Of a DNA stretch of 64,000 bases, positions 18,541-53,008 are shown one piece after another. Position numbers and translations under genes: made by a program. Numbering within the stretch: position 1 is the first letter of the stretch; each line of letters opens with the position of its first letter. Under the pieces are notes generated by a model. It was given only the letters and a program-made list of their open reading frames with translations. It did no database searches and was not told the origin of the DNA. The stretch comes from Chiloscyllium plagiosum (lineage: Eukaryota). Location: NCBI RefSeq assembly GCF_004010195.1, contig NC_057718.1:94800702-94864701 (forward strand), in the 5' to 3' direction.

Positions 18541-18580
18541 GCAAACGTTTCGTCCCCTGTCTAGGTGACATCCTCAGTGC
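18541..18580 (-). ncRNA. Minimal type-I hammerhead ribozyme motif (PLE family D), intact
   Basis: Exact reverse complement of 19816-19855. Confidence 0.8.
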
Positions 18581-19815
18581 TTGGGAGCCTCCTGTGAAGC
18601 GCTTCTGTGGTGTTTCCTCCGGCATTTATAGTGGCCTGTCCCCGCCGCTTCCGGTTGTCAGTTTCAGCTGTCCGCTGTAGTGGCCAGTATATTGGGTCCA
18701 GGTCTATGTGTTTGTTGATGGAGTTTGTGGATGAGTGCCATGCTTCTAGGAATTCCCTGGATGTTCTTTGTTTCGCTTGCCCTATAATGGTAATGTTGTC
18801 CCAGTCAAATTCACGTTGCTTGTCGTCTGCGTGTGTGGCATGATGACATGATAGCTGATCATGTCATTTCGTGGCTAGTTGATGTTCATGGATGCGGATC
18901 GTTAGCTGTCTTCCTGTGTGTCCTGTATTATATCACCCCTTGAGTATACTTCTCACCCTAATGTCGACAGTCTCTATGGTAAAGAATCCCATACGTTCTC
19001 TACCCTCTTGAGAGAAGAAGATACTTCTAATATTTGTCTTAAATGTGTGTTCCTTTAGTCTGAGATTATGCTCTTTGGTCTTTGATTTCCTCCACAAGAG
19101 GAAACACTGCATCTACCCTGTCAAGCACCCTACAAATCTTGCGTTCTTCAATAAGGTTGCCTCTTATTCTTCTAAACTGCAAATAGACTCCCTACCTACT
19201 CAACTAAAGTCCCTCCATACTAATGCCATCCAAGTGAACCTTTCCTATGCTGCCTCCAAAATCAGTATATCTCACCTTAGATAAGGGGCAGAAAACTGTT
19301 CACAGTTTGCCAGCTGTGGTCTGACTAGTGCCACGTATAGTTTTAGCAAAACCTCGCTACTTTTCGACACCATTCCTTTTGAAATGAAGGCCAGCATTCC
19401 ACTTGCCTTCTCTATTATCTGCTGAACCTGGATGCTAGCTTTTTGTGATTAAGAACTCTGAAGTCCCTCTGTTCTGTTGTCTTTGTTAATTTAAATACGA
19501 TTTGGCTCCCCTTTTGCCTGCCAAAGTGCTTCTGTGGTGGCCGGTATATTGGGTCCAGGTCTATGTGTTTGTTGATGGAGTTTGTGGATGAGTGCCATGC
19601 TTCTAGGAATTCCCTGGCTGTTCTTTGTTTCGCTTGCCCTGTAATGGTAGTGTTGTCCCAGTCAAATTCATGTTGTTTGTCGTCTGCGTGTGTGGCTACT
19701 AGGATATACCAGCCACTACAACGAACAGCTGAAACTGACAACCGGAAGCGGCAGGGACAGGCCACTATAAATGCCGGAGGAAACACCACAGAAGCGCTTC
19801 ACAGGAGGCTCCCAA

Positions 19816-19855
19816 GCACTGAGGATGTCACCTAGACAGGGGACGAAACGTTTGC
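19816..19855 (+). ncRNA. Minimal type-I hammerhead ribozyme motif (PLE family D), intact
   Basis: GCA-CUGAGGA-U-GUCaCCU(AGAC)AGGgGAC-GAA-ACGU-U-UGC: core, stem II, palindromic stem III and stem I GCA/UGC. Confidence 0.8.
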
Positions 19856-20549
19856 AACAAAAACTTCCAGCTCGGCGAACAGAACCACAGCAACTGTTAT
19901 GCAAGTTTTGTTTGAGCTTTTATTTTCACACAGACAACCACAAAAGATGAAAGAACAGGAGCTCCATATTGACGTTCCTCAGCGTGAGAGCTTTAAGTGC
20001 TACAGACAAAAGTGAATGATGATAGGTTTATACCTCAGAAAAAGGTGGATAATACACATGATAAATTCACTCCAAGTTACTTTTCTCATTTGCTGATATG
20101 CTATTGTATTAATGTGTTTACTGCTAGTTAATAAAACAGAAATATCTTCCAGTTTATTCCTGTGAATGATTGAATTGTTGAATAATTAAATTACTGTTCA
20201 CTGCTGGGTTTTAAATAGTTTCTGGGGTACAGTGAAATGGGGAGATGAAGATTGTAAGCAACAAAAGAAATAGGTTAAAATGCTACATATGCAGGCTTGT
20301 CGAATAGGTCTTCAAATTTTACTGAGCCCTTTTGGAAACATTTGCTGTTTATTATCTTTTTAAACAGAATCATTAGAATAACAATATGCCAAATATAACA
20401 CATTAAAATCTTGTCAGTTTTGGTTTTTTTATGCAGACAAACCACAAGTCAGCACTTAACAACTGAAGGAAGGCTTTGAGCCAGATATATGCAGAATCAT
20501 TTGTTTACAGCTAGATTTTCAAGAGTTGAAACTCACATGTATGAAGTGG

Positions 20550-20762
20550 GGGAGGTTGGTTAGCTCAGTTGGCTGATTTTCAGTACAGAGTAATGTCAAC
20601 AGTGTGAGTTCAATTCCCACACTGGCTGAGGGACTCTCAATCTCTCCCCTTGCCTGAACACTTTACACTGTGCCTCAGTACATCTGACGGTAATCAGTCA
20701 AATCAAAAATTACTCTTAAAGGGACAGAAAGCAATGCTATGGTCTGCTAGGACTATGACAAT
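20550..20762 (+). mobile_element. tRNA-derived SINE, family 2 (degenerate)
   Basis: TTAGCTCAGTTGG A box and GAGTTCAATTCCC B box; related copies at 34025-34226 (-) and 49720-49925 (+). Confidence 0.65.
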
Positions 20763-21334
20763 TTTGAGAATGTTACTGCAGGGAAAGAAGCCTACAGTTT
20801 TGTTCGTTGTTGTGTCCCTGGGGAGGTGGCCCAGATATTTGAAGAAGGGTGAGTGGTGAGTGATCCCAAATTCTGGTGGCCTGGTGGCTGGTGGCTGGTG
20901 GGATGGGCTTCACATCTCAGGGAGTTGATCACTGACAAAGACACAGGGTCTCACCTCTGTTCCCAGAGCTTCCAATCACGGGGCAAGATGAGATCTGACC
21001 ACAAGGTGGCACAGGAGGATGGGGAGGTACTGGCATGGTCGCCAATCTGAGAAACAGTTGAGTTTATGATCCCAGCAGACCAAATACCGAGTGATTTGTT
21101 GGATCATGCACAATGGGAAACAGGGAGTTCCAATAAAGTGCAGGTAATAAGGCAAGTTTGGTGGGCTTGGGGGAAAGAGCTCCAGTTTCCCTTGGCCCGC
21201 AGGTAATGCTCCAAACTTCTTTTCAAATTCTTTCCGTTCTTTATCACAGAAACAAGATGATTGGCACATCCATTGCCATGCTTTCAGACACTGGCAGAAG
21301 GGAGTGATCTTCCGGGTTTTGGTTACTTCACTGC

Positions 21335-21371
21335 AGAAAGAGAGAGAGAGAGAGAGAGGGAGAGAGTGAAA
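21335..21371. repeat. (GA)n microsatellite
   Basis: Visible AG dinucleotide run. Confidence 0.9.
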
Positions 21372-21484
21372 GACAGTATCTTTGGTTCAATCTGGAGGCT
21401 TCTTCCCCTGGATTGTTCAGAGAGGTAGTATCATGTTCATGACTCATGGACTCTACAACTGGTCCTGACTGTACAAACCAATCA

Positions 21485-21690
21485 AGATTACAGAGGTGCT
21501 GGAAAAGCACAGCAGGTCAGGCAGCATCCGAGGAGCAGGAACATCGATGTTTCATTTGCAGTCCTCACTTGCGCCTCTACAAACCAATCAGCAGTCTGAT
21601 GAAAATCTTATGCCTGAAAGATCGATTCTCCTGCTCCTCGGATGCTACCTGACCTCCTGTGCTTTTCCAGCGCCACACCTTTCGACTTTG
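21485..21690. mobile_element. PLE family A fold-back insertion with a degenerate hammerhead (about 21597)
   Basis: Arms ggtgctggaaaagcacagcagg... and ...cctgtgcttttccagcgcc are inverted; CTGATGA...GAAA is present. Confidence 0.75.
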
Positions 21691-21796
21691 TCTCTGAATG
21701 AAGCTTGCTTTGGATACATCCACTGTGCCATGGTATTTAGCACGACACCCCCCACTGCTTAAACAAAGAATCAGCGTAAATACAACTCACAATGAG

Positions 21797-21995
21797 TTAT
21801 AGAGCTATAGAGTCATACAGCATGGAAACAGACCCTTCGGTCCAACTAGTCCACGCCAACCAAACATCCCAATCTGACCTAGTCCCACCTGCCTGCATTT
21901 GGCCCATATCCTGACGAAAACTTTCCTATTCATGTATTTATCCAAATGGCTTTTAAACATTCTAACTGTCCCTGCATCCATCATTTCCTCTGGCA
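21797..21995 (-). mobile_element. CR1 3' end
   Basis: PEEMMDAGTVRMFKSHLDKYMNRK plus tail. Confidence 0.85.
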
Positions 21996-22854
21996 ATTCC
22001 AGTTCCTTGCTTTTAAAAGTGCAACAACTCCTTCCACAGTCCCCTGGTGTAAAACAGGCATTTTCCTATTTTTAGCCACAATCGCAAATAAAGAAAAATG
22101 GAAGGATGAAGCCTTTAAGAGTACGAGATCCTCCTGGCCTGTTGTTGTTCCTGCTGAGGTTTCCAAAATACTTATTCACACAATACAATTAATTGCTCTA
22201 CCGTCCCTCAACAGGCCAGTATCTGTCAATCTGCAGATTTCACGGTGAGGACACTTCCTGAAGATTGGCGTCTCTGCTACCCAAGATCCTTTGGTGGTTG
22301 AGAATTGTAGACTCTAGTAAAATTCAGCACTCCGAATAGGGCACTCAAAGGGTCATTGAGGGATTAATATGAGGCTGAGCTTCATGCACTGAGTCACAAA
22401 TTGGGGCAGTCTCTCTATTTGCATTTCAGAGTATTCTTTACAAGAAAATTTAATTTTAAAAATGTTTGTCATCTTTATCTGGAAGGAGCACTTGTTGATG
22501 CATCATTGTTTGAAAAAAAGTGCAGCTACTGACTTCAGCCTCACTCAGAAAGGGTTAAATGCACAGAGCAGTAAAGTCTGTGGTATGGGATTAAAATTCA
22601 GATACAGTGCCTGCATCTGGGGGCTGTTTCAAAATCAGCTCAGACATTTCAACGATTGTTTACTTTCACTCGTGTTGAGGTGAAGCAATTCATTTAGATT
22701 CTTCAGGGACAGTGCCAGGCGAGTCTGCTGTGTTGAGATCAGAATTAATAAATATGAGAGAAAGATCCTGTTCACCATCAGCCAACTGTTACAAAGGCAG
22801 TGAAAAAGCAGGCCTCAGGCTGAAATAGGAATTAAAGATATTGTTTCCCCAATT

Positions 22855-23759
22855 TAGAACATAGAACATAGAAAAGTACAGCGCAGTCCAGGCCCTTTGG
22901 CCCTCGATGTTGCGCCGATCCAAGCCCACCTAACCTACACGAGCCCACTATCCTCCATATGCCTATCCAATGCCCGCTTAAATGCCCATAAAGAGGGAGA
23001 GTCCACCACTGCTACTGGGAGGGCATTCCATGAACTCACGACTCGCTAAGTAAAGAATCTACCCCTAACATCTGTCCTATACCTACCACCCCTTAATTTA
23101 AAGCTATGCCCCCTCGTAATAGCTGACTCCATACGTGGAAAAAGGTTCTCATAGTCAACCCTATCTAAACCCCTAATCATCTTGTACACCTCTACCAAGT
23201 CACCCCCAAACCCTCTTTTCTCCAATGAAAACAGCCCCAACTGCCTCAGCCTTTCTTCATACGATCTCAAGTATCCGACTATTAGCCCAGTACCCCATCT
23301 TTTTGTTATTGTTCCCAAAGTGAATCACCTCACACTTAGCTACATTGAATTCCATTTGCCACCTTTCTGCCCAGCTCTGCAGCTTATCTATATCCCGCTG
23401 TAACCTGACACATCCTTCCTCACTGTCAACAACTCCACCGACTTTCGTATCATCCGCAAACTTGCTCACCCAACCTTCTAGCCCCTCTTCCAGGTCATTT
23501 ATAAAAATGACAAACAGCAATGGTCTCAAAACAGATCCTTGCAGAACACCGCTAGCAACTGCACGCCAAGATGAATCTTTACCATCAACTACTACCCTCT
23601 GTCTTTTTCCAGCCAGCCAATTCCTAATCCAAACCTCCAACTCACCCTCAATGCTAACCTCCGTATTTTTTGCAGTAGCCTACCATGGGGAACCTTATCA
23701 AACGCCTTACTAAAATCCATATACACCACATCTACCGCTTTACCCTCGTCTACCTCCTT
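22855..23759 (-). mobile_element. Young CR1 LINE with RT motifs and an internal deletion (about 23262)
   Basis: GVLQGSVLRPLLFVIFINDL...SKFADDTK...WQMEFNVAKCEVIHFG; (TAGAACA)n tail. Confidence 0.9.
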
Positions 23760-24170
23760 AAAGCTGATCTAAAGGGAAACTATATTAAAAGAGACTATTT
23801 TGTTGATTACTTCGAACAGAAAACATGCTGACTGTTTCATAGAATCACAAAATCTCAGCTCGTGAATTCATTTAGGGTCCCAGCACCCATTGTCTCCCTT
23901 AACATGAGCGACCTATAGTTTCATAATACTTCACTTTGTTGAGTTCTATTTTTCCATAGGGGTTGCCTGGCCTGATGAATCATCCAAACATTTTCTACTG
24001 CTTTTTTTCAGATTACCCAGCAGCCCCCTGCACTGCTTTGCGTTTTTGCCTAAATATTTAATGATTCTATTTTCTGCTACTTTACGCTGAACTCCAGACG
24101 AGTAATGAGGGATTTGCTTTGGAGATAAAGCCTATAAGTTAACTTGCAAAACTACATAAATGCTTTATCA

Positions 24171-24490
24171 AGCAGTGATGGCCTAGTGGCACTGTTGCTT
24201 GACCAGCTATCTAGAGCCCCAGGGAGTGTTCTGGGGGCCTGGGTTCAAATCCTGCTATGGCAGATAGTGGAATCTGAATTCAACAGAAATCAGGAATTAA
24301 GCATCCACTGATGATCATAGAACAGTTGTTGGGGGAAAACCCATCTGTTTCACTAATGTCCTTTAGGGGAAGGAAACTGCCATCCTTACCTGGTCTGGCC
24401 TACATGCAATTCCAGACCTGTTCTCTGGACAATTAGGGATGGGCAATAGTCCTGGTCAGTGACACCTTACTCCTGTAAATGAAATTTAAA
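24171..24490 (+). mobile_element. tRNA-derived SINE, family 3 (shares the LINE family-2 tail)
   Basis: TGGCCTAGTGG A box and GGTTCAAATCC B box; related minus copy at 34275-34860. Confidence 0.7.
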
Positions 24491-28002: not shown

Positions 28003-28200
28003 TGGTGTGGAGGTGCCAGCGTTGGACTGGGATGAGCAAAGCCAAAAATCACTGGGTTGTCGTCCAACAGGTTTATTTGAAACCGCAAGCTTTCGAAGCC
28101 CCCGCTCCTTCTTCAAAATGCTAGAAATAGCAGGGTCTCGCAAAGGTTGTGGTTTCAAATAACCTGTTGGACTATAACCCAGTGTAGTGTGAGTTTTGAC
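28003..28200. mobile_element. PLE family B fold-back insertion with a degenerate hammerhead
   Basis: gtccaacaggtttatttgaaacc is inverted to ggtttcaaataacctgttggac; same family as 40724-41105. Confidence 0.75.
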
Positions 28201-28752: not shown

Positions 28753-29837
28753 CACCCTACATCAGTCTGAATTTTACTGTTTTTGTGTCTATGTCTGGGT
28801 TACATTGTGCTTTGTGGAGGGAACCTCACTGCGTGGCTCAGGGACTATTTTCACCATATCTTGCCATACTAATTGCTAATCCTGTCTGTTTGGTGGCCCT
28901 CATGTCTGTTTTCATTCTCACATCTTACCACCCTCCGTTCCCAGAACAACTTGCCTCTCTTGAGGATATCCATCTGAAGACCAGCATCCCTTGCAACCAC
29001 ACCATCTTTGAAAGGCTACTAAGCACTCGGAGGATCACTGGGATCAGGAAGTTGCACTGCTTGGATAGTTCAAATGTTCAAATTAATCACACCTTTACAC
29101 CCTAAATCCTGGAGCCCCATTGAGCTCTCCATGTGACTAGTGGACTGAGTCATTGTTGCTCAGTATGTGACTACAGTGCGACAATGAACATGGAACCCTG
29201 GATATACATTGCCATAGCAATCAGTTCCATCCCTTTATGATTAACATAACCCTGGTGTTAAGATCTTTTCTGCTTTTCCAGTCCAGCTGTCAAATACAGC
29301 AAACAACAAATGCTGGAGATCACAGCGGGTCAGCACCCATGGAGAGACAGCAAGCTAACCTTTCAAGTCTAGATGACTCTTCATTAGAGCTGACATGTAG
29401 TGTGGAGGGGGTAGCATTTATGTAAGTTATGCAATAGTTGTTGAAGGGAGGTGAATGTGGGGAGGATTGCATTCCTCTAGAAATGCCTCTATGTTAATGT
29501 AACGATCATGATCATTAATTTTTCTTTCTAAAATATTAACAATCAATTTCTGTAATTAAACTGAACACCTTTAGAGTCTGTCATGGATGGTGCTCCAAAC
29601 ATTCTTCTCCAAAACATTACTCATGGTATCGGTTAGCTAAAGAATGGTGATCTCCCATTTGTAGGGGCAGCATCTGTCACTGTCAGTGGTGCGTAGACAC
29701 TCTCTACAGGCAATGATGTGCATTTTGCTCCTGGTGTACCTATACCCAGGCTGGATTCTGCTGATGTTTTGTCACTGGTGGCATTGTTGATGTTGGATTA
29801 CTTATCAGTGATGATGTCTTCCTGGGTAGTGATGTTA

Positions 29838-29968
29838 GGAAAAAGTGAGGACTGCATATGCTGGAGATCAGAGTCAAAAAGTGTGGTGCTGGAAAAGCAC
29901 AGCAGGTTAGGCAGCATCTGAGGAGGAGGAGAATCGGTGTTTCAGGCATAAGCTCTTCATCAGGAATG
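29838..29968 (-). mobile_element. PLE family A terminal-repeat insertion with hammerhead
   Basis: gtgaggactgc...tttcaggcataagctcttcatcagg is the reverse complement of the CTGATGA..GAAA unit. Confidence 0.8.
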
Positions 29969-30019
29969 TGACGTTGCTGATGTTAAGATCTTTTCTGCTT
30001 TTCCAGTTCAGCTGACTAT

Positions 30020-30625
30020 CAAATACAGAAAACAACAAATGCTGGCGATCACAGCAGATCAGCATTCATGGAGAGACAGCAAGCTAATGTTTCAAGTCTA
30101 GATGACTCTTCATCAGAGCTGACATGGAGTGGACAGCATTTATGCAATAGTTGTTGGAGGGGAGGTGAAAGTAGGGAGGATGGCATGCTGGGGGAGTTAA
30201 AATACTAATAGTTCAGATTAAGCAATCAAAATGTGAGAATATAGGACAATGGTGTGTCTAATTGCCAGAATGGAAAGAACAAACAGTCCCACTGGAGTCA
30301 GAGGAAGGGAGAGAGGACATGGTGACAGAGGGTATAAGCTAAAAGAAAGGGAAGGAATGGAAGTGGATTCACAATCTGAAGATGCTGAACTCAATATTGA
30401 GTCCAGGAGACTGTAAAGTGCCTGGTCTAAAGATAAGATGTTCCTCCAGTTTGCGCTGTAATTCACAGGAACACAGCAGCATGCTGAGGACAGACATGTT
30501 GGCATGTGAGCAGAACACTGTCTTAAAATGACTGGCTACAGGAAGGTCTGGGTCCTGCTTGCACACGGACCAGAGGTGTTCTGCAAAGCGATCACCCAGT
30601 CTGCATTTAGTTTCTCCAATGCAGA
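30020..30625 (-). mobile_element. PLE family C 3' part: GIY-YIG C-terminus plus terminal repeat
   Basis: IGETKCRLGDRFAEH...PVASHF...QRKLEEHLIFRPGTLQSPGLNIEF. Confidence 0.85.
30083..30119 (-). ncRNA. Minimal hammerhead ribozyme motif (PLE family C)
   Basis: GCU-CUGAUGA-A-GAGUC(AUCUA)GACUU-GAA-ACAU-U-AGC. Confidence 0.75.
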
Positions 30626-31486
30626 GCAAAGGCTGATATCCAAGTTCAGAACCCATGAAGATGGCCTCAACCAGGACCTTGGGTTCATGTCACACTACAG
30701 GTGACCCCACTACACTTTACACTCTCTCATACACATGCACTCTTACATACTCACACACTCACGTGGACTCTCTCACATACACACGCTGTGTCTCATAGAC
30801 AGACACATACACTCCCCACACTCACACCCACGTGCACAACCTCTCATAGGCTTATACTCCATCACACTCACACACACACTTTACCAAGCATGCACACACA
30901 CAAACGCGCACTCTCTTATGCACACTCACACTCACACACTCACCTGCACACACTGTCTCTGTCTCTCATGCACACACACACACACACACATATAAGTGTA
31001 TGGGCTGAATTTGCATTTGCAGAATTGTATTTCCAGATACATTCTATTTTGCTCAAAAAGCACACAATCTGCAGGCAGTCAATGCAAGCAGTCAATCCAT
31101 GTAATAGTTTATAAGTTGATACTTTGGAAATAGAACCAGTCTGACTCAAGATTGGAATACAGAAAGATTCTAACCTCACACCTTTAATACATTGTCTGAG
31201 CTGAGATGTCACCTTTTTAAATAAAACCTTAAATTATCTCGAGCATGTGACTCAAAAGAAGTTCTGGGTTTTACATATTAATGAACTGAAACCTGCAACC
31301 CATTCTAAAAGATGAAAGACTTAACAGCAATCTAAGTTTGTTCATTTCAGTTGCATGACACTGTAATCTTTTGCTCTAAATTCTGTGTCATATGATCCCA
31401 TTCCACAGCTATCTGATAAAGGAGCAGCCCTCCGAAAGCTAGTGCTTCCAAATAAACTTGTTTATTTGGTGTTCTGTGATTTTTAG
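30621..31486 (+). mobile_element. PLE family B 3' part: ORF C-terminus, (CA)-rich UTR and degenerate hammerhead (31413)
   Basis: AEQRLISKFRTHEDGLNQDLGFMSHYR* at 30621-30704; downstream UTR is related to 42770-43267. Confidence 0.8.
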
Positions 31487-31657
31487 CAATGTAGAGGCAG
31501 CAGTGAATACAACACAGACTCTGTTCCCTCTTGCTTGTTGACTGGCTTTATCCTCAATGACATACACCTCAGTGTCTCAGCCTCAGCAATAACTTCTGTT
31601 GGCCCTAGCTTTTCACAATTGGATCCTGAACACGTACATTGTCCTTTCAACAGCTCA

Positions 31658-31692
31658 TTTCTGATGAAGGGCTTATGCCCGAAATGTTGATT
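31658..31692 (+). ncRNA. Minimal hammerhead ribozyme motif (PLE family A)
   Basis: CUGAUGA-A-GGGC(UUAU)GCCC-GAA-AUGU-U; stem III shows a CpG-type change. Confidence 0.7.
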
Positions 31693-31782
31693 CTCCTGCT
31701 CCTCGGATACTGCCTGACCTGCTGTGCTTTTCCAGCACTACACTCTCGACTCTGAGCTGCAGCATCTGCAGTCCTCACTTTC
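31658..31782 (+). mobile_element. PLE family A solo terminal repeat with 16-bp TSD
   Basis: TSD TCCTTTCAACAGCTCA at 31642-31657 and 31783-31798. Confidence 0.9.
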
Positions 31783-32777: not shown

Positions 32778-33068
32778 GAGCAAGTGAGGACTGCAGATGC
32801 TGGAGATCAGAGTCAAAAAGTGTGGTGCTGGAAAAGCGCAGCAGGTCAGACAGCATCCGAGGAGCAGGAGAGTCAACGTTTCGGGCCTTCATCAGGAATG
32901 TCAGGAAACCTGGAAGATAGAGCTAATGCCACTTCTCTGTCAAAAGCCACAGAGAAATCAGTTGCACAATGCTCTGATTTCTTGACATTCCTGATGAAGG
33001 ACTTATGACAGAAGTATCGAATCTCCTGCTCCTCAGATGCTCCCTGATTTTCCAGTGCTACAGTTTCG
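32778..33068. mobile_element. PLE family A fold-back insertion enclosing a copy of local DNA
   Basis: Inverted arms; 19-bp TSD (32759-32777 and 33069-33087, 2 mismatches); 32899-32976 copies 32377-32455. Confidence 0.85.
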
Positions 33069-33409
33069 GACTCTTCAAGATTAAATGACTGTCATACTCG
33101 AAGCTTTAATTTTAGGATTTATCACCTCATGATACCGTTTGTTTTATCATATGGATATATCCCGAGTTCATTAAGCACGTTCATGTGACTTCATTGAGCC
33201 AGCTCACAATGTAAGCATGTGATGATGGAGGTCAGATATGGACAAGGGTTTTCAGGCACTAATCCAGAAATGCTTCAACTTGACAGGAATAGATTTATTA
33301 CCAAAATGTAGTGAACAAAAGGATGAATTGAGTTGACAGAAATAGGTCAAACTTATTCTCAAATGTTAGTGGAATAAATAATGGATTTCAATAGCAGTGT
33401 TTTGCTTTT

Positions 33410-33605
33410 TGATGTCAACGTTTCAGGAAAAAGCTTTTCATCAGAAGTGAGGCCTCGATTTTCCTGCTCCTCGGATGCTGCCTGACCTGCTGTGCTTTTC
33501 CAGCATCACTCTAATCTTGACTAGCATCCATGGGATGCTGTGATCCGCTGTGATCTCCAGCATTTGTTGTTTTCAGTACAGATTCCAGCACCTGCTGTGA
33601 TTTGT
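33410..33605. mobile_element. Nested PLE family A and C terminal-repeat fragments
   Basis: Antisense hammerhead-like 'cgtttcaggaaaaagcttttcatcag', a sense family A body, then a family C tail. Confidence 0.65.
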
Positions 33606-34226: not shown

Positions 34227-34274
34227 CATCTTCCTAAGCCAGCAGAACTGGGCTTTTGTTGGACCCGAGAATCT

Positions 34275-34860: not shown

Positions 34861-34949
34861 CTTTCTTATTTCGGCGTAATTAAAATACCTCTTTCCACGA
34901 ATGATTTCCAAAACAGCCAGCAGGGAAAGGGGATAAAATGATGCATTAT

Positions 34950-37178: not shown

Positions 37179-37731
37179 ATTATATTTAGCCAGAGCATTG
37201 TCAAAAATGGCTTCTCTTCTCACCCATTCATTGTTACCTCTGAAAGTTCCATAAAGTGACCACTTTTGGTCCCATCCTCTTCCTGATTGTTATGCTGTCT
37301 CTTGTTGGAATCTTTCACAATTTCAGAGGCAACTTTCATGGGTGAACAAGTCCACCTCCCCATTAATTCACGCAATCCTTCTGCTATCTTTGTGCTTTCA
37401 AATTGTTTATGCAAACCTGTTTCATGCAATTTCCTTCGGTTAAACATTGGGAAGACTATAAAGCCATCATCTTTGGATGATCATCTACAATCTCTATCCT
37501 TTTCCAAAAAAAAATCTCCTATTCTTCCTCAGGCTATCTTAGATTGAATCGCATTTTTTGTTTTGCAATGTCAATATTCTTTTGAACCCTATTTTGAATT
37601 TTTGATTCATATCACCTCTAATCAAAAAGACCCCCAATTTCTCCTCTGTAAAAACACCTGCTTCTACCATTACCTCAGTTGCAGAACATCTCATACATGC
37701 CTTTGTCACAGTCAAATTCAAATATTATTAT

Positions 37732-38048
37732 TATTCTGAAGACGGGTCACTGGACTCAAAATGTTAACTCTGCTTTCCCTCCACAGATGCTGCCAGGCCT
37801 GCTGAGTTTTGCCAGCAACTGGGTGAGGGAGGCAAGGATAGAAGAAAAGAGGCAGAGCTGGGAGAAGCAGATAACAAACAAGACAACAAAGAACTAGAGA
37901 GGAAGACTTAGTGCCTTTTAATAGATTAATAGACAGATAGAGTACCAATGAAGCTCTGTGCTTATCAATCAAGGTGTGTCTGCATGTCCAGTAGCAAAAA
38001 AGGGATCACGTGATCTAGACTGAGTTTTTGTTTCAGATTTTCAACATT
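37732..38048 (+). mobile_element. PLE family E terminal repeat (degenerate hammerhead at 37736) interrupted by the 210-bp duplicate
   Basis: CTGAAGA-C-GGGTC(ACTG)GACTC-AAA-ATGT-T-AAC; element resumes 'gtttttgtttcagatttt' after 38021. Confidence 0.7.
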
Positions 38049-40723: not shown

Positions 40724-41105
40724 GATTTGGAGGTGCCGGTGTTGGACTGGGGTGTACAAAGTTAAAAATCACACCACACCAGGTTATAGTCCTTCAGGTT
40801 TATTTGGGAGCACTCGCTTTTGAAGCGCTGCTCCTTCATCAGGTGGTTGATGCCTTTCTTTGCAGAACTATTTTGCAGAATTATTAGATGATGCACAGAT
40901 CTATCTTTAAGTAAGCCTTTTACTGGTTCATTCTGAAACTGATCTATTTTTTGCAAGTTCAGCAATGGCTCAGAACCCCAGTGGTACTTTACATTGACGT
41001 TAAGGGAGGTGACTTATGGGAACAACCACCTGATGAAGGAGAAACGCTCCAAAAGCTGGTGCTTCCAAATAAACCAGTTGGACTATAACCCGGTGTTGTG
41101 TAAAT
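40724..41105. mobile_element. PLE family B fold-back insertion with two opposed hammerhead motifs and a ~170-bp spacer
   Basis: ctccttcatcaggtggttg (40831-40849) is inverted to caaccacctgatgaaggag (41023-41041); imperfect flanking repeat attttgttt(c)aat. Confidence 0.8.
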
Positions 41106-41779: not shown

Positions 41780-42169
41780 ACCTGGACAGAAGAGATGACC
41801 TGGGGGTTGCAGTGAGAGAGAGACTCACTGACATTCTTGTAGAGAGAGGAGGAAAACTTCTTCAAGGCAGGCATCCTTGCAAGAGGATTCACAGTAAGGT
41901 TAAAATCAACGAGGTAAAAACAAGGACTGCAGATGCTGGAAACCCAAGTCTGAATTAGAGTGGCGCTGGAAAAGCACAGCAGGTCAGGCAGCACCCAAGG
42001 AGCAGAAAAATCAACGATTTGGACAACAGCCCTTCCTTTCCTGATGAAGGGCTTTTGCCTGAAACATCGATTTTTCTGCTCCTTGGTTGCTGCCTGACCT
42101 GCTGTGCTTTTCCAGCGCCACTCTAATTCAGACTCTGGTTTCCAGCATCTGCAGTCCTTGTTTTTACCT
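41780..42169. mobile_element. PLE family A palindromic insertion including a putative ORF start
   Basis: ~125-bp inverted arms (about 41912-42035 and 42046-42169); the left arm extends into MPALKKFSSSLYKN on the minus strand. Confidence 0.85.
42037..42072 (+). ncRNA. Minimal hammerhead ribozyme motif (PLE family A), core intact
   Basis: UC-CUGAUGA-A-GGGC(UUUU)GCCU-GAA-ACAU-C-GA. Confidence 0.75.
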
Positions 42170-42726
42170 AGACAGAAGTCCAAGTTGACCCAATGGGGTC
42201 TTCAAATTACGAAAGATTCTGATAGAGTGGATACAGAGGGAATGATGGAACGTTCCCAACCACTGGATGATGTGAACGAGAATGCTGGGAAAATTAGCTG
42301 AGATATAGTAAGGGCATTCTGGGTAACAGGATCAAAAAACTTTTATTCTCCAACCAAATGTTGAACTGCGAAATGAGGGCCTCGCTAGAGAGGCAAGAGG
42401 TCTATTTGCATGGATTATCACTGATTATCATCCTCATTACTAACAAATCACGTATCATTAATATGTGGTTTCCCATTCTCCTACCCTTTCATTGTAATGC
42501 TCCTACCACTTTGTGTGAAGGGTTAGGCTTCAATTCGTGGATCAAACCAAGGTGCATCTCCAAACACCTCGCTCACACACTTAGAACTCACTCACTTTGT
42601 ACCTGCTTGAATGCTCGAAGCCTATCTGCTTTGCATTGCCTTTTTGTGGTCTACCCCTCAGCCAGATCTTGAATGTTCACTGTACTTTTGACTTGTGTTG
42701 CCTTCCTTGCAGACTTAAAGCCAGGC

Positions 42727-43267
42727 ATGATTCGGAGACGCCGGTGTTGGACTGGGGTGACATTTTTTTGTACTTGCAGAGTTACATTGCACTTTGCTCA
42801 AAAACTGCATACATTCATGTAGAACTCAGAGCTCAAAAACTGCATGAATTTATGTAAAACTGCATGAATTTATGTAAAAGTGTTATCTCACTTTTTAGAT
42901 TGGAATCAATCTAAACATCAGGTCATAGACAGAGAACACAGAGGGCTAACACCTTCAACATATTGTCTAGCTATCACCATTGTTAACAGCTAACCCGAGA
43001 ATGCAACTTTTAAAAAAAGGGTTTTGTGATTTACACATGAAAGAAGTGAAACTATCACTGTATTCTAACAGATGAAAGGCTTAACAGACAATCAATTCTT
43101 CAATGTATAATTTCAGTTACATCACACTGCAAATTTTTGCTATAAATTCTGTGTTACGATTGAGCCCTCCACAATCACCTGATGAAGGAGCATCGCTCCA
43201 AAAGCTCGTGTGCTTCCAATTAAACCTGTTGGACTATAACCTGGTGTTGTGTGATTTTTAACTTTGT
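42727..43267 (+). mobile_element. PLE family B 3' UTR and terminal repeat with a short inverted 5' arm
   Basis: Related to 31010-31486; contains a 20-bp tandem repeat aaaactgcatgaatttatgt (about 42836-42879). Confidence 0.8.
43176..43210 (+). ncRNA. Minimal hammerhead ribozyme motif (PLE family B), G12-to-A
   Basis: CAC-CUGAUGA-A-GGAGC(AUC)GCUCC-aAA-AGCU-C-GUG. Confidence 0.7.
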
Positions 43268-43590
43268 AATGCCATGCAGTTTGTCAAAGTGATCAGTCAA
43301 GGGGCTGGGTGTGTTGCTCTGCAGTTCTGTGTGACATAGTTTCACACCTGTACTATCTGTGCCAGGCTCAAATGCACCAAACACATTGAATGTGCTTCAA
43401 CTAAATGGATTGTCTCAAAGTCTGATGGAAGTTGTCCTCAGTCAAGTTAAGAGAGACACCCTCCAAGCAGGGGCATAGTATATCAATCTTATAGCTGTCC
43501 ACGGGCATGGGCATGGTCAGTCAGTCTTTCAGAGCAATCAGGGTCAGGATGACCCCCCCAAAGTGGGTGAGAAGCCGAATGTTGGGACTG

Positions 43591-43832
43591 GCTTAGTGGT
43601 GCTGGAAAAGCACAGCAGTTCTGGCAGCATCCGTGGAGCAGTAAATCGACGTTTTGGGCAAAAGCCGAGATTTTATCTCTCCACCCTTCAGGCACTCTGC
43701 CTGTATTCCTGATGAAGGGCTTTTGCCCAAAACGTCGATTTTACTGCTCCTCGGATGCTGCCTGAACTGCTGTGCTTTTCCAGCACTACTAATCCAGAAT
43801 CTGGTTTCCAGCATCTGCAGTCATTATTTTTA
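43591..43832. mobile_element. PLE family A fold-back insertion with 16-bp TSD; hammerhead at 43709-43740
   Basis: TSD CCGAATGTTGGGACTG at 43575-43590 and 43833-43848; inverted arms. Confidence 0.9.
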
Positions 43833-44164
43833 CCGAATGTTGGGACTGTCATTACCCATCTTGATTCATTCTGTCCAACTGTGGGCTGTTTTTGTCTGGA
43901 ATAAGGGAGAGAATGAGTGTGATGAGGGAAGTGGTTGCACATCTGTTTGTGCTGGTGTGGGTGAGGGAAAGGTGGTGACTTGGCTCGAATGAGTGAGTGA
44001 GTGAGTCAGAGAAGCAGAAGGTGATGGAAGGTTTAGTGATGGGGAGGGGAATGACAGCGAGTGGTGAAAATTGTTGCAGGCAATAGTGAGAGTGGTAGAT
44101 GATGAGTTGAGAGGTTGGTGTAGTAAGAGATTGAGTGAGTGTGAAGTCACAGAAAAAAGTTGAC

Positions 44165-44410
44165 ACCTCTTACCCTGGCAGACCGGAGAATGTCATTGAC
44201 CAGCTTTGACGTTGCTCCAAACAGATCAGGCCACGTTGGCCTAAATGACATCCTTGGACTCTGCTGGATGATGCAGAGTAAGTCTGGTGTCTTGGCCTCC
44301 TTTGGAGGTCCTACGGAAAGAGGTCAGCCCTCTTTTGCATTATCCATCCAGTAAGACCTCCAGGCCCCTATCCTCAAAGACAGCGCCAATTCCCCTTTAG
44401 CTGCAATGTC
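44165..44410 (-). pseudogene. Decayed Myb/SANT-like gene fragment of a PIF/Harbinger transposon
   Basis: Frameshifted minus-strand reading KGELA..FEDRGLEVLLDG.MQKRADLFP*DLQRRPRHQT...VNDILRSAR followed by a GTAAG donor. Confidence 0.55.
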
Positions 44411-44529
44411 TGGGGCAAATGTCACGAACCCATAGGGGCAGCTCTAGGCAGCAAGCAACGGTCTTTTAAAAACAGCTCAAGTGCCAGGAATCCCTAAAGG
44501 TTCCAATACTATTGAATACTTCTGTCTAA

Positions 44530-47469: not shown

Positions 47470-47800
47470 TAAAGGTCATGACCAACCCTTTGGAAATCCC
47501 TGCACGCGGGTAATAAGGAGGAGGGAAGTTGGCCAACGATCTGTGTCACAAGGTTAAAGATTCCTCTCTCACTGTGAGCACAGGGTCTCCAATGGTGCTC
47601 CATGCTGTGATGTTCATCAGTGCCTCTTGGCCAAAGCCATGTCCTTGCACAACAGTAGGCCTGCAATCACCAAACCCATGTTGTCCACCATATTAAGTAT
47701 CTGGTGTGACCAGGGTGAGTTCTTGTCATGACACACGAGTGTAATGGATTCCACAGATGGACATTCTGCGTCAATTTTACAATGCAAGTTTGACATTGAT
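47470..47800 (-). mobile_element. Possible LINE C-terminal zinc-knuckle relic (RTEX/I-like)
   Basis: RTHPGHTRYL..W...C...SMEH pattern across frames. Confidence 0.35.
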
Positions 47801-47925
47801 TGGAGGTATTTAGGTGTATGCAGTGGTAGAGTGTTTTCACTGATACCTCTATTTGTATAGAGAGCATCCTAATGCAGCATCTGTGAATTTCACCTGGAGT
47901 GGAAGGAAAACATCTGTCGGTGCCA

Positions 47926-48194
47926 TTGGGAAAAGATATGAAAGGGAGCTAAGAGGCAACCTTTTCATGCAGAGGGTGCTGCATGGATGGAATGATCTAC
48001 CAGAGGAAGTGGTGAAGGCTGGGACAATTACAACATTTAAAAGGCATGTGGATGGGTTCAGTAATAGGAAGGGCTTAGAGGGATAAGGATAAATGCTGGC
48101 AAATGGGACTAGATTAATCTTGGATATCTGGTCAGCATGAGCAGGTTGGACTGAATGGTCTGCCTCTGTGCTGTACATCTCTATGACTCTATGA
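47926..48194 (+). mobile_element. CR1 3' end
   Basis: GKRYERELRGNLFMQRVLHGWNDLPEEVV; ctctatgactctatgac tail. Confidence 0.9.
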
Positions 48195-49164
48195 CATGGT
48201 GTAAATACTTACTTTGATACTCACACTGTTGAATGTTAGCTCACGTTGGGTCTCAATGGGCTGCTCATTGTCACCACCTGACTCTCTAGCCAGGCTAGAA
48301 CTTCAGTGGGTCTTGCCTTTAAACCATGTAGTTCACTGTTTCGGTGTTTAAAATGCTGCATCTTAGTTTGTAGCCACTCATGGCATCAAACCATTTGTTT
48401 TGCTCTTTGCTTTTTGCAATGACTTCTGATGTTGCATGCCTTGCATATTACATTAACAACTGGGCAGATTCTGTGTGCATATATGAGGCTGCACCACCTG
48501 CATTGTTTAAGGGACTTGCTATCTCCCAAAGGCAGATATATTACACTCTTTCAACCCACATGCCTTCGCAATTGGGTCTGTTTTGTAGTTGTTCTTCCAC
48601 AGTATAATCTTTGAGGTGATCCAAGATGTCTCCTTCAAATGTTTCCATTGGGATAGATGTTAACATGAGCTTGATTATTCTGTTGGCTAGCTCTGTTTGC
48701 AGTGAAATCGCAATCCTGCCCCTTATCTCTGCATCTACCTATGATTCAGTCAATGCTAACTAAAAAGGCCTGAGCTCTGGATAACATAATTTGGAACTGA
48801 GCTTAACTCTCATTTGATCTTCAGGTTGTGACTAGATCTGACCTGGATCTTTATGATGGTTGTTGGACAGACCTGACTTGATCAATCCTCATTGCTGGGA
48901 GCAATTTTAATTTTAGTGGCTTGTTTATTTGATTCAGAAGTATTGGAAAATATGGTTCAATACCTTGTCAGAACACTATAAATGTGATTGGAGATCTGTT
49001 GCTTTCCAACTGAAGGTTGACTGCAGCTTTTAATGCTATCTGGAGCTTTTAATAGCTATTCAGGTTTCTTCCAGTTCATTTAGAATCAACTTTGCTTTGA
49101 TTTACAGAATGTTTAATAGCTACTGCCTCATCATCGAGGTGTAGGTTATAGTTTGACTTCCGTC

Positions 49165-49370
49165 ACACTATAACCTGCACATCCCTGAACACTATGGGGC
49201 AATTTAGTATGGTCAATTCACCTAACCTGCATAGTTTTGGATTATGGGAGGAAACCCACACAGACACGGGAAGAATGTACAAACTCCACACAATCACCTG
49301 AGGCTGGAATCAAACCTAGATCCTTAGCACTGTGAGGCAGCAGTGTTAACCACTGGCCCACTGTGCTGCA
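49165..49370 (-). mobile_element. HE1-type SINE, 5' and central part
   Basis: Antisense head and central domain. Confidence 0.85.
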
Positions 49371-49719
49371 CCACAACTTCTGTTCCTGAATAAACTTTAC
49401 ATCACGTAGATTACTAAACCCTTCCACCTAAATTTTACAATCAAATCTTCAAAACTGTTTCCATTTTATGGAAGGTACTCTTTAAAAAAAGTTTTCAGAA
49501 ACGACAAGCTACCAGCATGATACAGTCTTCTCTTCGAAGCAAACATATCATTCACACAAAGGGATTGGTGGAACAGTTATGTAGGTTCTCTATGAGAAGT
49601 TAAAACTATTTACAGATAACGCTCACTGAGAGCCAAGCATTGTACATCTGATCTCCATCGCTGCTGCTCCAATCTGCCTGTACGTCATGACGTGAATGCT
49701 GTTGCAGCACATAAAGACT

Positions 49720-49925
49720 AGGGATTGATTAGCTCAGTTGGCTAGATAGCTGGCTTATGATGCAGATTGATATGGACAGTGTGGGTTCAATTTCTCCACC
49801 AGCTGAGGTTACTATGAAGATCCTGCCTTCCCAACCTTAACCTTGTCTGAAACATAGTGACTATCAGATTAAACCACAACCAGTTACCCCTCGTTAATGG
49901 GTGTGCAGGAAGTTGGCAACTTTAC
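49720..49925 (+). mobile_element. tRNA-derived SINE, family 2
   Basis: TTAGCTCAGTTGG A box and GGGTTCAATT B box. Confidence 0.65.
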
Positions 49926-50104
49926 CTATGTAAGCATTGGCAATAACTTCAAATATACTTTCCCAAGGTGCATACAAATCAAATTATATTTCTAATTGGC
50001 AAGAGTGAGACAGATTTGAGACTTTGGAAAATGTCAAGTTATGCTAATTATAAACATGACGTACATTTAAAAAGGTTACATTTTAAAAATCAAATGATCA
50101 CTCG

Positions 50105-50290
50105 TAATCAAAAAGAACTGCAGATGCCAGAAATCAGAAACAAAAGCAGAAATTGCTGGAAAAACTCAGCAGGTCTGGCAGTATCTGTGGAGAGAAAACA
50201 GAGTTAACGTTTCGGGTCCAGTGACTCTTCTTCAAAACATGTTTAACTCACATCGGTTGATTTTGTCTAGCAATTTCTGTTTTTACTTTA
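50105..50290 (-). mobile_element. PLE family E terminal repeat with hammerhead (50203-50238) and a short inverted arm
   Basis: Reverse complement reads GUU-uUGAAGA-A-GAGUC(ACUG)GACCC-GAA-ACGU-U-AAC. Confidence 0.75.
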
Positions 50291-50619
50291 CATTCATAGG
50301 TTAGTTATCAACTTGTAAATCCTTTCCAGATGCTAATGGCATGCACTAAGAGTGAGAGAATCTCTCTGTCTATCAAACGTGATGAGGAACTGTACTCCTC
50401 AAGCTCTTCCCTCTCGTGACAGAATAGTGGTGACCCATTCCAGAGAAATCATAAAGAAAATTAGTACATTCTTATAACAAAGGTAAGACACCACAGATGC
50501 TGGAAGTCTGAAACAAACACAGAGAATGGTAGATATATATTTGTTGGACAAGGGTATTAAGGTTTTAAGACCCGAAGTGAACCATTGGAGGTAATATTCA
50601 GAACAGACATGAACTAATT

Positions 50620-50942
50620 GGGATAGCACTGTGGCTCAGTGGTTAACACTGCTGTCTCACAGTGCCGGGGACTCGGGTTCGATTCCACCCTCAGGTGATC
50701 ATCTGTGTGGTGTTTGCATGCTCTCCCTGTGTCCTCCAGGTCCTCCAGTTTTCTTCTACTGTCCAAAGATGTGCAGGTTAGGGTGGCTTGACCATGCTAA
50801 ATTACCCATAGTGTCCATGGGTGTGCAGGCTAGGTGGGTTAGCCACAGGAAATGTGGAGTGACAGGGATTGGGTGGGGATGCTCTTTGGAAGGGCAGTGT
50901 GAGTCAAATGGCCTGCTTCCACAATGTAGGGAATCTATGATT
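50620..50942 (+). mobile_element. HE1-type SINE nested in a decayed PLE family E fold-back (about 50480-51062)
   Basis: SINE with GGTTCGATTCC B box; flanks read 'cagatgctggaagtctgaaacaaacacagagaatg' and 'ctccagcattctctgtgtttgttt'. Confidence 0.8.
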
Positions 50943-51599
50943 TAACCAATTTGGCAGCATTCTGAAGATGAGCCTTTCTGGACTTAAAACATTAATTGTG
51001 TTTCTCTCTCCACGGATGTTTCCTGGCCGCTAAACTTCTCCAGCATTCTCTGTGTTTGTTTAAGCAGGTTATTTGTCTGCTTCATGCAGCATTAGATGCA
51101 GGAAGTTGCTAAATCTAAATAACAAGTAAACTGTTACTGGAAGATTTGCTTGATTACATCTTTTAATTGCTAAATCGACAAAATGTACAAAAGGGTATGC
51201 AATAATTAGACGTTTCCCTTTTTGTATATATATTTCTAATATGATCCAGTTATGATATTTTATACAGAATATCTTGAATAGATTGGGACAGCCACGCTCA
51301 TGACTTGTAGATCCAAGACGCTAACATCTAACAAGGTTTAAAAGTACAACAGCTCCACCTTTAGAGATTCTGCAGTAATTTGAAACATTCAATGCTCTTT
51401 GATCCAGAAATGTTCAAAAGACATGTTGCAGTCTCAATTATAACCTGTGTCAGTACAAAGGCATCCTCCATTGGATTGTTCATGTCTTGCAAAGTGAAAT
51501 GATGTCGGTTTAAGTACGTAACAAGTTTGAATTAAAACAGTAGGTAATGGAAAAGAATGTAGCCACCAATTTTTGTTGCAGCCTGATGCCCATAAATAT

Positions 51600-52035
51600 A
51601 CAAGTTATAGAAAGGATATTATTAAACTGGAGAGGGTTCAGAAGATATTTACTAGAATGTTGCTGGGTATGGAAGGTTTAAGTTATAAAGAAAGGCTGGA
51701 TAGGCTGGGACGTTTTTGACTGAGCGTAAGAGGTTGAGAGGCGACCTGATAGAAGTTAATAAAATAATGAGGGGTACAGATAGCATTAATGGTAGTTGCC
51801 TTTTCCTTAGGATGGAAGATTTCAAGACTAGGGGTCACATTTTTAAGGTGAGAGGAGAGAGATTTTAAAAAGACATTGGGACAAATTGTTTACACAGAGG
51901 TTCGCATGTGGAATGATCTTCCCTGAGGAAAAATTACAATATTTAAAAGACTTTTTGATAAATACATGAATAGGAAAGATTTTGTGAGGTATGGGCTAGG
52001 AGCCGGCAGGTGGGACTAGCTTATTTTGGGGTTAT
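51600..52035 (+). mobile_element. CR1 3' part
   Basis: KDIIKLERVQK...LSYKERLDRLG-like sequence and 3' end. Confidence 0.85.
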
Positions 52036-52044
52036 CTGATCACA

Positions 52045-52178
52045 CCTTCCTGATGAAGAGCTTATGCTTGAAACATTGACTCTCCTGCTCCTCAGACGCT
52101 TCCTGACCAGTTGTGTTTTTCCAATACCACACTTTTTGACTCTGATCTCCAGCATCTGCAGTCCTCACTTTCTCCTCC
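52045..52178 (+). mobile_element. PLE family A solo terminal repeat; hammerhead at 52050-52080
   Basis: CTGATGA-A-GAGC(TTAT)GCTT-GAA-ACAT-T-GA; common 3' end gcagtcctcactttctcc. Confidence 0.8.
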
Positions 52179-52787
52179 TTAAAGGTGAAGTCATTTAAAG
52201 GAAAGGTACACATACAATAATCTCCTCCTTTCCAAAAGATGGGTTAAAATAGGGGATGAATGTTCCATTAAAAAAAACAAATTATAAATTCTCTAATAAC
52301 TATTAAAGATAGATAAAATAAAGGATTTTATGTATAAATGTAGAATAAAGATTAAGATAGGCCTTTTTAGTTTTCAAGATGTCACTCTGTGTGTCAATTG
52401 ATAACTGTTACTTCACCCTAAGAATATTGAACAGCCTAGTCATTAAGTTTACACACGTGGTTCAAAATGCTTTCCAATGATAGGAAATTCACTGTGCAAG
52501 CTAAAGATTAAAGCAGTTGTTTTCAGCTAACACAACATGATTACTTTTATATTGCTGAGAAAAAGAGGCATGCTTTCAAAGTTCCTTGTCTCGTCCACCA
52601 AGGGACAAAAGTCCCCTCATGCATTCGTACAGAAAAATAGAAAATAGAAACAGTTGGTGTCTACTTGCCAACCAATCAGCAGCCTTTTTCTTTTCCTGTA
52701 TAAATTGTTGCACCACTCAAAATTTGAAATTCTTGTGTCTGTCCTGATGAGTGCACAATGACAAGCAGTGCTTAAGTTCTGTACATG

Positions 52788-53008
52788 TTGTGGAGGTGCT
52801 GGCGTTGGATTGGGTGGACAAAGTTAAATATCAGGAGAAAGTGAGGACTGCAGATGCTGGAGATCAGAGTCAAAGAGTGTGGCGCTGGAAAAGCACAGCA
52901 GGTCAGACAGCATCCAAGGAGCAGGAGAGTCAACATTTCAAGCATAAGCCCTTCATCAGGAATGAGGCTTCCTCTTGGGCTGTAACCTGGTGTGTGATTT
53001 TTAAACTA
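52788..53008. mobile_element. PLE family B fold-back interrupted by a family A copy (52833-52965, -)
   Basis: Family B arms flank an antisense family A unit carrying a hammerhead. Confidence 0.7.

Follow-up and report, generated by a model that had tools for sequence, protein, structure and literature searches.

A stretch of 64,000 nucleotides (nt) from the genome of the shark Chiloscyllium plagiosum (NCBI RefSeq assembly GCF_004010195.1, contig NC_057718.1, positions 94,800,702 to 94,864,701 of the forward strand), hereafter called the window, contains 22 copies of a short repeat that we read as the minimal hammerhead ribozyme (min-HHR) module of endonuclease-bearing Penelope-like elements (PLEs), lying about 100-135 nt from the 3' end of the inserted copies. 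We put the probability of this reading, taken together with the proposals on promoter and short copies developed below, at roughly 0.85. The motif is of a known kind, the min-HHR of PLEs described by Cervera & De la Peña 2014 (PMC4209133); what is new is the shark host, the scale on which the copies occur, and spacing evidence on where the transcripts start. The window has a G+C content of 41.8%, a single N gap at 15453-15726, and no long open frames.

Read from 5' to 3', a site consists of the 5' strand of stem I, the box CUGANGA, one extra base, the stem II hairpin, GAA, a 4-base stretch, H, and the 3' strand of stem I; the sites fall into families labelled A to E. The original prediction, made from the letters of the window, had named 19 of them: all 19 coordinates carry the CUGANGA/bulge/stem II/GAAA/NNU-H/stem I' arrangement or a decayed copy of it, and three further sites, at 21596(+), 32986(+) and 50963(+), bring the total to 22. 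The loose pattern CTGANGA-N4-30-GAAA is found 20 times in the window, against 7.6 +/- 3.1 times in 100 dinucleotide shuffles, none of which reached 20 (the maximum was 16). A strict descriptor, which requires an exact core, a bulge of 0-1 nt, at least 4 base pairs (bp) in stem II, GAAA-NN-U, an H that is not G, and at least 2 bp in stem I, gives 15 matches in 194 kb and none in each of 30 dinucleotide shuffles; seven of these matches are in the window, and eight in 130 kb made up of arbitrarily chosen stretches of thirteen other chromosome-size pieces of the same genome. A covariance model (R1) built on intact genome copies of families A, C, D and E recovers 16 window sites at E <= 0.002; a 17th, at 21589-21631, has an E-value of 0.77 and is too weak alone. 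With its filters off, this model recovers none of the five window copies of family B, and with default filters it also misses B loci elsewhere; the five B copies were located by pattern.

The catalytic boxes, C3-A9 (CUGANGA) and G12-A14 with A15.1, are exact in 7 of the 22 window copies and in tens of thousands of copies in the genome. In all families A9 is followed by one unpaired base, which is A in families A, B and C, either A or C in family E, and U in family D; C or G in this place is rare genome-wide (1,972 matches against 579 in the control). The 10.1-11.1 pair is G-C in 12 of the 16 aligned rows and G.U in the remaining four. Helix II is 4 bp long in A, 5 bp in B, C and E, and 6-7 bp in D and the D-like family D2. 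Helix III and loop 3 are absent: intact genome copies have in their place, at 15.1-16.1, a 4-nt palindrome, which is ACGU in families A, D, D2 and E and, in family B, AGCU, with one exception, the master sequence of a C subfamily, which reads ACAU.

This architecture agrees with the published definition of the min-HHR, namely a hammerhead without helix III, with an unpaired base between 9 and 10.1, a G10.1-C11.1 pair, a helix II of 4-8 bp, a palindromic 15.2-16.2 and a short helix I (PMC4209133). The CUGANGA and GAAA boxes are shared with the metazoan PLE motifs, and so are the bulge after A9, G10.1-C11.1, the palindromic 15.2-16.2 and the short helix I of 2-4 bp, four features that lie outside our search pattern. 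Minimal hammerheads in PLEs are also attributed to Lünse et al. 2017, as cited in PMC6765202.

The claim that the stems covary across families is borne out at the level of families, by pair counts set against shuffled and slid controls. The alignment used (A3) holds 16 intact genome copies from A and its sub-forms A2 and A3, and from C, E, D and D2; family B, which MAFFT shifted by one column, was left out of the formal pair count and was added to the stem tables by an anchored script. In this alignment 83.7% of the cells pair, against 61.4% in column shuffles (none of 500 as high) and 16-48% when the partner strand is slid 1-3 columns out of register, and the score for covariation reaches 0.52, as compared with 0.19 in shuffles and at most 0.13 in slid versions. 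Both sides change in 6 of the 11 pairs, which is no excess over the shuffle mean of 5.5 (257 of 500 shuffles were as high), and the same holds for further pair types, 14 against 14.5 (357 of 500): two of the five whole-structure measures are thus not above shuffles, and they have little power with so few independent lineages. Once B is included, 31 of the 32 family-majority cells in the outer four pairs of stem II are paired, the exception being an A.G in D that is A-U in D2; in the first three pairs of stem I, 19 of 24 cells are paired, against 3-5 of 24 when slid. Family-level covariation of the stems is clear, on about five or six lineages only.

The other line of evidence ties the motif to coding sequence. 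In endonuclease-bearing PLEs, one open reading frame (ORF) encodes a reverse transcriptase and, C-terminal to it, a GIY-YIG endonuclease with a CCHH motif; insertions show 5' truncation, an inverted 5' copy and an optional tail of 30-40 bp, as PMC8557442 and PMC11167929 describe. The 3' part of such an element, of family D, occupies 18467..18956 on the minus strand: a GIY-YIG C-terminal coding remnant, a TATAAA box at 18630-18625, the hammerhead, and a tail with two alternative 3' ends. The remnant, at 18501-18956 (-), matches the protein P0004 with a tblastn E-value of 1e-68. P0002, the frame that runs into the minus-strand D motif, is up to 86% identical (E 2e-47) to proteins of Chiloscyllium punctatum, Hemiscyllium ocellatum and Rhincodon typus, and its longer relatives P0005 and P0009 contain a YVDD reverse transcriptase, then a GIY-YIG block VVYKIPCKDC..YIGQTGR..RIHEH with two Cys and two His. 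The Pfam models RVT_1 and GIY-YIG score below their curated cut-offs on P0005 and P0009, P0003 (the D frame read through with X) has no Pfam match, and the 106 stop-to-stop frames of at least 70 amino acids in 17-54 kb give one RVT_1 match and no GIY-YIG match.

A second D remnant, found by tblastn, lies at 19520..19777 (-) and abuts the inverted plus-strand copy. Upstream of one family C hammerhead there is a GIY-YIG C-terminal coding remnant at 30342..30686 (-), supported by tblastn and by phmmer relatives: the frame in this place (30372-30689, minus) has 340 phmmer relatives at E <= 1e-3, and a word-indexed search restricted to longer proteins returned none at E <= 0.001. Twelve longer relatives were scanned: GIY-YIG is found at the aligned place in nine (three at or above the Pfam cut-off), and RVT_1 in four (one at the cut-off). 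The original prediction had linked families B, C and D to GIY-YIG remnants. When 158 retrieved proteins were compared with the window by tblastn, endonuclease remnants appeared only at 18501-18956(-), 19520-19777(-), 19548-19925(+) and 30342-30686(-), and none beside any window copy of B, A or E; within the window the link thus stands for D and, of the two C copies, for one, and is seen for none of the five B copies. Elsewhere in the genome, an ORF end of PLE type precedes the B motif by about 0.5 kb, past a CA-rich stretch (loci L021 and L027), and one PLE-type ORF ends about 190 nt upstream of an A motif (L003). Architecture and linkage to reverse transcriptase and GIY-YIG coding sequence together support the proposal that these are minimal type-I hammerhead motifs of Penelope-like elements.

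Pattern searches over the whole genome, 3.56 Gb in which the window is part of piece C9, give lower bounds on the number of copies: 195,819 for family A (24-mer, at most 2 mismatches), 41,771 for B (at most 1 mismatch), 23,515 for D (37-mer, at most 3 mismatches) and 1,775 for the C subfamily (34-mer, at most 3 mismatches), all with reversed-pattern controls of 0. These sum to at least about 260,000 near-intact copies. The generic pattern CTGAAGA-N10-22-CGAAACGTH, searched exactly, has 81,303 matches against 67 in its reversed control; this number overlaps with that of family A and cannot be added to it. For family D, at least 100 copies are perfect, all of them, among the matches listed, in the first 94 Mb of piece C1. 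The predicted very large, multi-family population of ribozyme motifs is thus confirmed by counts of 10^3 to 10^5 per family, with controls of 0-67. Of the five predicted families, not all are independent: A, C and E have a common tail motif, and B and D are unrelated in sequence to these three. By eye, the common motif is a small inverted repeat, UGCUG ... CAGCA, about 45-65 nt past the cut site, with examples at 31689-31760, 30000-30082 (-) and 50120-50197 (-); it may be an internal priming site.

We now turn to the individual copies in the window. Seven are intact, meaning that all core letters are present with at least 4 bp in stem II and at least 2 bp in stem I: A 31661, 42041, 52050 and 52959, C 30116, and D 18577 and 19819. 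The family D hammerhead at 18536..18585 (-), fully intact and a strict match, has its C3 at 18577 and a predicted cut between 18544 and 18543, and the covariance model gives it 46.4 bits (E 1.6e-11); its counterpart at 19811..19860 (+), with an identical motif, belongs to an inverted 5'-truncated copy, and the two form an inverted repeat, 18502-18692 / 19704-19894, of 191 nt at 97% identity. The intact C copy, 30078..30124 (-), keeps its core and stems, with ACAU in helix III and G.U at 10.1-11.1, and scores 53.6 bits. Core and stems are also intact in the A copy at 31653..31696 (+), with helix III AUGU; the core is intact at 42033..42076 (+), in the forward half of a palindromic insertion at about 41920-42170, at 52043..52085 (+), with ACAU, and at 52924..52967 (-), with AUGU. 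Among the intact window copies, only the two D copies have the palindrome ACGU, the others having ACAU or AUGU, as expected from CpG decay.

The other copies are damaged in various ways. Core letters are altered in 12 of the 22: all five B copies, both E copies, the E-like copy, one C copy, and A 43709, 29963 and 32986; three further A copies (32895, 33444 and 21596) have lost stem II. In family A, G12 is changed to A at 43701..43744 (+), within the insertion 43591-43832; U16.1 is changed to C, with one stem II mismatch, in the decayed copy at 29928..29971 (-); a 7-nt deletion has removed stem II at 32867..32903 (-); and the copy at 33409..33452 (-) keeps its core letters with a decayed stem II, and has an inverted tail copy just upstream. 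The two A copies that are additional to the original list are a decayed one at 32983..33026 (+), with E 0.0018, and one at 21589..21631 (+) with decayed stem II, which the family alignment supports and which lies within an inverted pair at 21496-21690. The third additional copy, resembling E and C, is at 50955..51001 (+), with G12 changed to A and E 0.0012. The C copy at 29349..29395 (-) is decayed, with G5 changed to A and AGGU in helix III. In family E, C3 is changed to U at 50198..50243 (-) and G12 to A at 37728..37773 (+).

In family B the damage is G12A in three copies, G8A in one and C3U in one; in three A copies it is a change of core or helix III. The B copy at 43179..43207 (+), with G12 changed to A, retains its stems and the AGCU palindrome, and has TATAAA at 43141. 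The remaining four are decayed: 41030..41058 (+), with G12 to A and G at H17, stands head to head with 40814..40842 (-), where G12 is A and 16.1 is G; 31413..31441 (+) has G8 changed to A, and 28087..28116 (-) has C3 changed to U. Most window copies are dead fossils, and the statement that the stems always pair, true of the family-level sequences, does not hold for individual copies.

The insertions have the anatomy of PLEs: they are strongly truncated at the 5' end, carry target-site duplications, and may or may not include a tail of about 35-40 nt. An inverted truncated copy abuts the 5' end in the insertions 41920-42170 and 43591-43832 and in the family D pair; target-site duplications are found at 43575/43833, and at L001 and L065. 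The insertion 43591-43832, for example, consists of an inverted truncated copy and a forward copy between the halves of a 16-bp target-site duplication, 43575-43590 / 43833-43848. The two alternative 3' ends of family D, 35-40 nt apart, appear as loose read ends at 18467 and 18502-18507. Many short copies, or stubs, start within a few bases of the motif. Head-to-head pairs, with 5' ends at most 30 nt apart, number 11,201 loci in A, 2,207 in B and 42 in D, with 0 in all three controls; same-strand A tandems at stub spacing number 159, none of them in the window.

The junctions of these pairs show where the copies end. Of the 42 family D junctions, 26 have their centre at -23/-24 from C3 (22 with an 8-nt spacer and 4 with a 6-nt spacer); in A and B the commonest 5' ends, estimated by eye among the 50 loci listed per family, are at about -4 and about -7/-8. 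Long copies have a TATA-like box further upstream: in family A it reads TTTATC and lies at -35/-34, family B has TATAAA at -38 (at -40 in a variant that is longer by two bases), and family D has TATAAA at -53; in the window such boxes are at 18630-18625 (-), 19766-19771 (+) and 43141-43146 (+). The family D box lies inside a stretch that gene models translate as the C-terminal extension of the protein. The distance from the box to the commonest 5' end is 30-31 nt in A, B and D, families without other common sequence. As the commonest end in D lies away from the motif's edge, what unites the three families is the spacing to the box and not the ribozyme. We infer from this spacing that a TATA-type promoter in the pseudo-long terminal repeat (pseudo-LTR) starts transcription at the positions where the 5' ends of stubs recur.

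Assuming such a promoter, PLE RNA would start in the pseudo-LTR just upstream of the ribozyme, and the hammerhead would be the first folded element of that RNA. The stubs of about 130 nt would then be complete complementary DNAs (cDNAs) of short transcripts begun in the 3' pseudo-LTR, primed by the reverse transcriptase internally in the tail; the Anolis enzyme primes internally in the tail in vitro, according to PMC11167929. A wider proposal, which we advance tentatively and at somewhat less than even odds, is that stub 5' ends are TATA-promoter starts, that all PLE RNAs begin with the hammerhead and that stubs are promoterless cDNAs, so that cutting would cost the RNA its cap, and in family D also its start codon: the ribozyme would then switch the RNA between messenger and template, or serve the element as a means of limiting itself, and would not be a trimmer of upstream sequence. 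The putative D start codon is an ATG formed by A9, the bulged U and G10.1 (18577-18544 (-), 19819-19852 (+)). The upstream frame ends at a TAG in loop II, and the ATG frame is open to the 3' end of the element in all copies examined.

How cutting itself might proceed is taken from a hypothesis published for min-HHRs and applied here to the shark motifs. Two motifs would pair through the palindromic ACGU or AGCU to form a helix III, and each strand would be cut 3' of H17, so that multimeric or read-through transcripts would be processed. One possible trace of cleavage was set aside. An inverted tail lies at most 30 nt from a forward tail at 648 loci in the genome, and in 12 of the 50 listed the inverted tail ends at 1.1, that is, at the cleavage site; these 12 are perfect hairpins whose loop is the 28-nt hammerhead core, and the junction falls in the two-base overlap of the stem I strands. 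We do not count them as cDNA ends made by cleavage, as a snap-back through stem I microhomology, by a cDNA ending just 5' of C3, explains them equally well.

Several observations weigh against our reading. Rfam has no match at gathering score in the whole window, and no hammerhead family (type I, HH9, HH10 or others) is among the 17 matches that it gives in 17000-54000 at E <= 10. Without helix III the motif would be expected to escape these models, and the consequence is that no curated model vouches for it. Fifteen of the 22 window copies are broken. Helix I has only 2-4 bp, and it pairs poorly in both D2 copies and, of the two genome copies of E that were examined, in one. The promoter has the spacing as its sole basis. 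Three more points bear on cleavage, and they also favour a different reading, in which the motif descends from a true hammerhead and is kept for a role that involves no cutting (a folded 5' leader, a binding site for the element's protein, or a mark of the 5' end of the RNA or of where the ORF begins), with negligible cutting in vivo. The C subfamily has spread, with 46 identical copies among its 1,775, with the non-palindromic ACAU in helix III and G.U at 10.1-11.1, and copying therefore needs no intact dimerisation site. In the RNA run X19, a poly(A)-primed single-cell library, 290 reads fall on a D copy, about 5-6:1 in the direction that is sense RNA in most stranded libraries, and at the predicted cut site the depth is even (106.9 against 107.8 in flanking bins) with no pile of read ends, in a library that is a poor detector of 5'-OH ends; a second run, X20, contributes no reads. 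In Anolis, catalytic mutants leave insertion in vitro unchanged and no RNA-seq ends are found at the cut site, according to PMC11167929. To this one may add that metazoan min-HHRs have very low activity in vitro even as dimers (PMC4209133), and that cutting would strip the putative family D start codon. A non-cutting role is unlikely, though it deserves to be taken seriously: the invariant catalytic letters, including those without a Watson-Crick partner, are kept in sequence-unrelated families whose stems have diverged, and a mere hairpin or protein site would not require them; moreover, the Anolis motif cleaves in vitro, with the expected pattern of C3 and G8 mutants (PMC11167929).

It could also be supposed that the short copies are replicators in their own right, similar to retrozymes, whose tandem units would be transcribed, self-cleaved, circularised and copied by rolling-circle reverse transcription, and that they are not by-products of PLEs. 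The stubs are non-coding, tandem arrays made of the hammerhead alone with a period of 38-41 nt do exist, and a 2026 preprint (10.64898/2026.07.22.740005) derives animal retrozymes from PLE pseudo-LTRs, one chondrichthyan included. Nevertheless we hold this improbable: same-strand A tandems are few beside the head-to-head pairs (159 against 11,201), single stubs have their own target-site duplications, and the array of locus L065 sits in one duplication-flanked insertion with a single tail, which looks like template switching in one event. Least probable is that the hammerhead likeness is a product of chance within abundant repeats, with no meaning at the RNA level. Relaxed patterns do give stray matches in the window (e.g. 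at 2533, 9830 and 11462), and one of the 15 strict matches (L044) is probably a chance AT-rich hairpin; but chance is contradicted by the 30 shuffles, none of which yields a strict match, by reversed-pattern controls of 0-67 where the true patterns give 10^3-10^5, and by compensatory changes between families in both stems. The reading as min-HHR modules of endonuclease-bearing PLEs is the one we retain.

Two loci illustrate the arrays just mentioned. At L065:381-570 (piece C7) and L066:347-525 (piece C15), 4.7 units of 38-41 nt follow each other in tandem, each made of the hammerhead alone, the 3' strand of stem I passing directly into the 5' strand of the next stem I. One insertion in L065, bounded by a 14-bp target-site duplication, contains both the array and a single normal tail, hence one retrotransposition event; the array probably arose by repeated template switching at the common UCCUG.

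Comparison with known systems brings out likenesses and differences. In teleosts, coelacanth, Xenopus and reptiles, min-HHRs number thousands of copies that form covarying families; most are single motifs, and some are pairs on opposite strands (PMC4209133). The shark shows the same picture: many families with compensatory changes in one genome, single motifs far outnumbering full elements, and opposite-strand pairs 100-700 bp apart. It differs in its host, an orectolobiform-like shark, in a number of copies per genome that exceeds the 4,000-9,000 of coelacanth and Xenopus by one to two orders of magnitude, and in tight palindromes joined within a few bases of the motif.

The closest parallel for family D is the Poseidon element PAc of Anolis carolinensis (Frangieh et al. 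2024, PMC11167929), as described in that paper: the D ATG lies at the start of stem II as in PAc, its distance to the predicted cut is 28 nt in D and 26 nt in PAc, and in both, insertions end about 100 nt past the motif, at either of two alternative 3' ends that differ by about 35-40 nt (the 'tail'). In families A and B, unlike PAc, no long frame begins within the motif, and the shark copies examined were short of full length. The stubs resemble the non-LTR retrozymes of animals (Cervera & de la Peña 2020, PMC7229834; Li et al. 2026 preprint) in being non-coding, hammerhead-bearing derivatives of PLE termini. Those retrozymes are defined by tandem units, whereas shark tandems (159) are rare beside single stubs and 11,201 head-to-head pairs, and the 38-41-nt units of L065 and L066 are shorter than the 51-bp minimum retrozyme consensus given in 10.64898/2026.07.22.740005, where PLEs and retrozymes are reported in one chondrichthyan. 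In Penelope of Drosophila virilis (Schostak et al. 2008, PMC2377424) transcription starts inside the terminal repeat, as the spacing suggests for the shark; the fly promoter is internal and TATA-less, unlike the TATA-like box that in the shark would act from about 30 nt upstream of the recurrent 5' end. Our literature search found no paper describing these shark families, and species lists in supplements may name shark families; the whale shark genome paper merely lists Penelope among repeats.

Other coding traces in the window remain to be reported. The family D locus is composite, for a foreign fragment sits between the two direct copies of the D endonuclease remnant: by eye, 18960-19500 (-) resembles the C-terminal region of a reverse transcriptase of a long interspersed element (LINE), which we take to be of CR1/L2 type. 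Reverse-transcriptase remnants not assigned to either PLE or LINE are at 23290-23658 (-), 10266-11287 (+), 56001-56403 (-) and 59979-60128 (-); RVT_1 matches 23260-23679 with E 2e-13. The C-terminal peptide of the family D endonuclease also turns up in two shark gene models, P0007 and P0010 (E 4e-41 and 3e-29), named 5'-nucleotidase domain-containing protein 1 isoform X3 and MAP3K7 isoform X3; the fragments of the element have been exonised, or else the annotation has wrongly attached them to host genes.

What the hammerhead does in PLEs is, according to PMC8557442 and PMC11167929, an open question, and this genome is unusually good material for it: it has several young families with thousands of identical copies and clean compensatory changes in the stems, and its head-to-head junctions fix where the cDNA ended. 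Decay after insertion is uninformative on selection. For annotation, the finding means that stubs are read into host gene models, as in P0007 and P0010. If the spacing between TATA-like box and 5' end does reflect transcription starts, the ribozyme would stand at the very start of the RNA, which would constrain its possible roles and would explain why copies end exactly at the motif.

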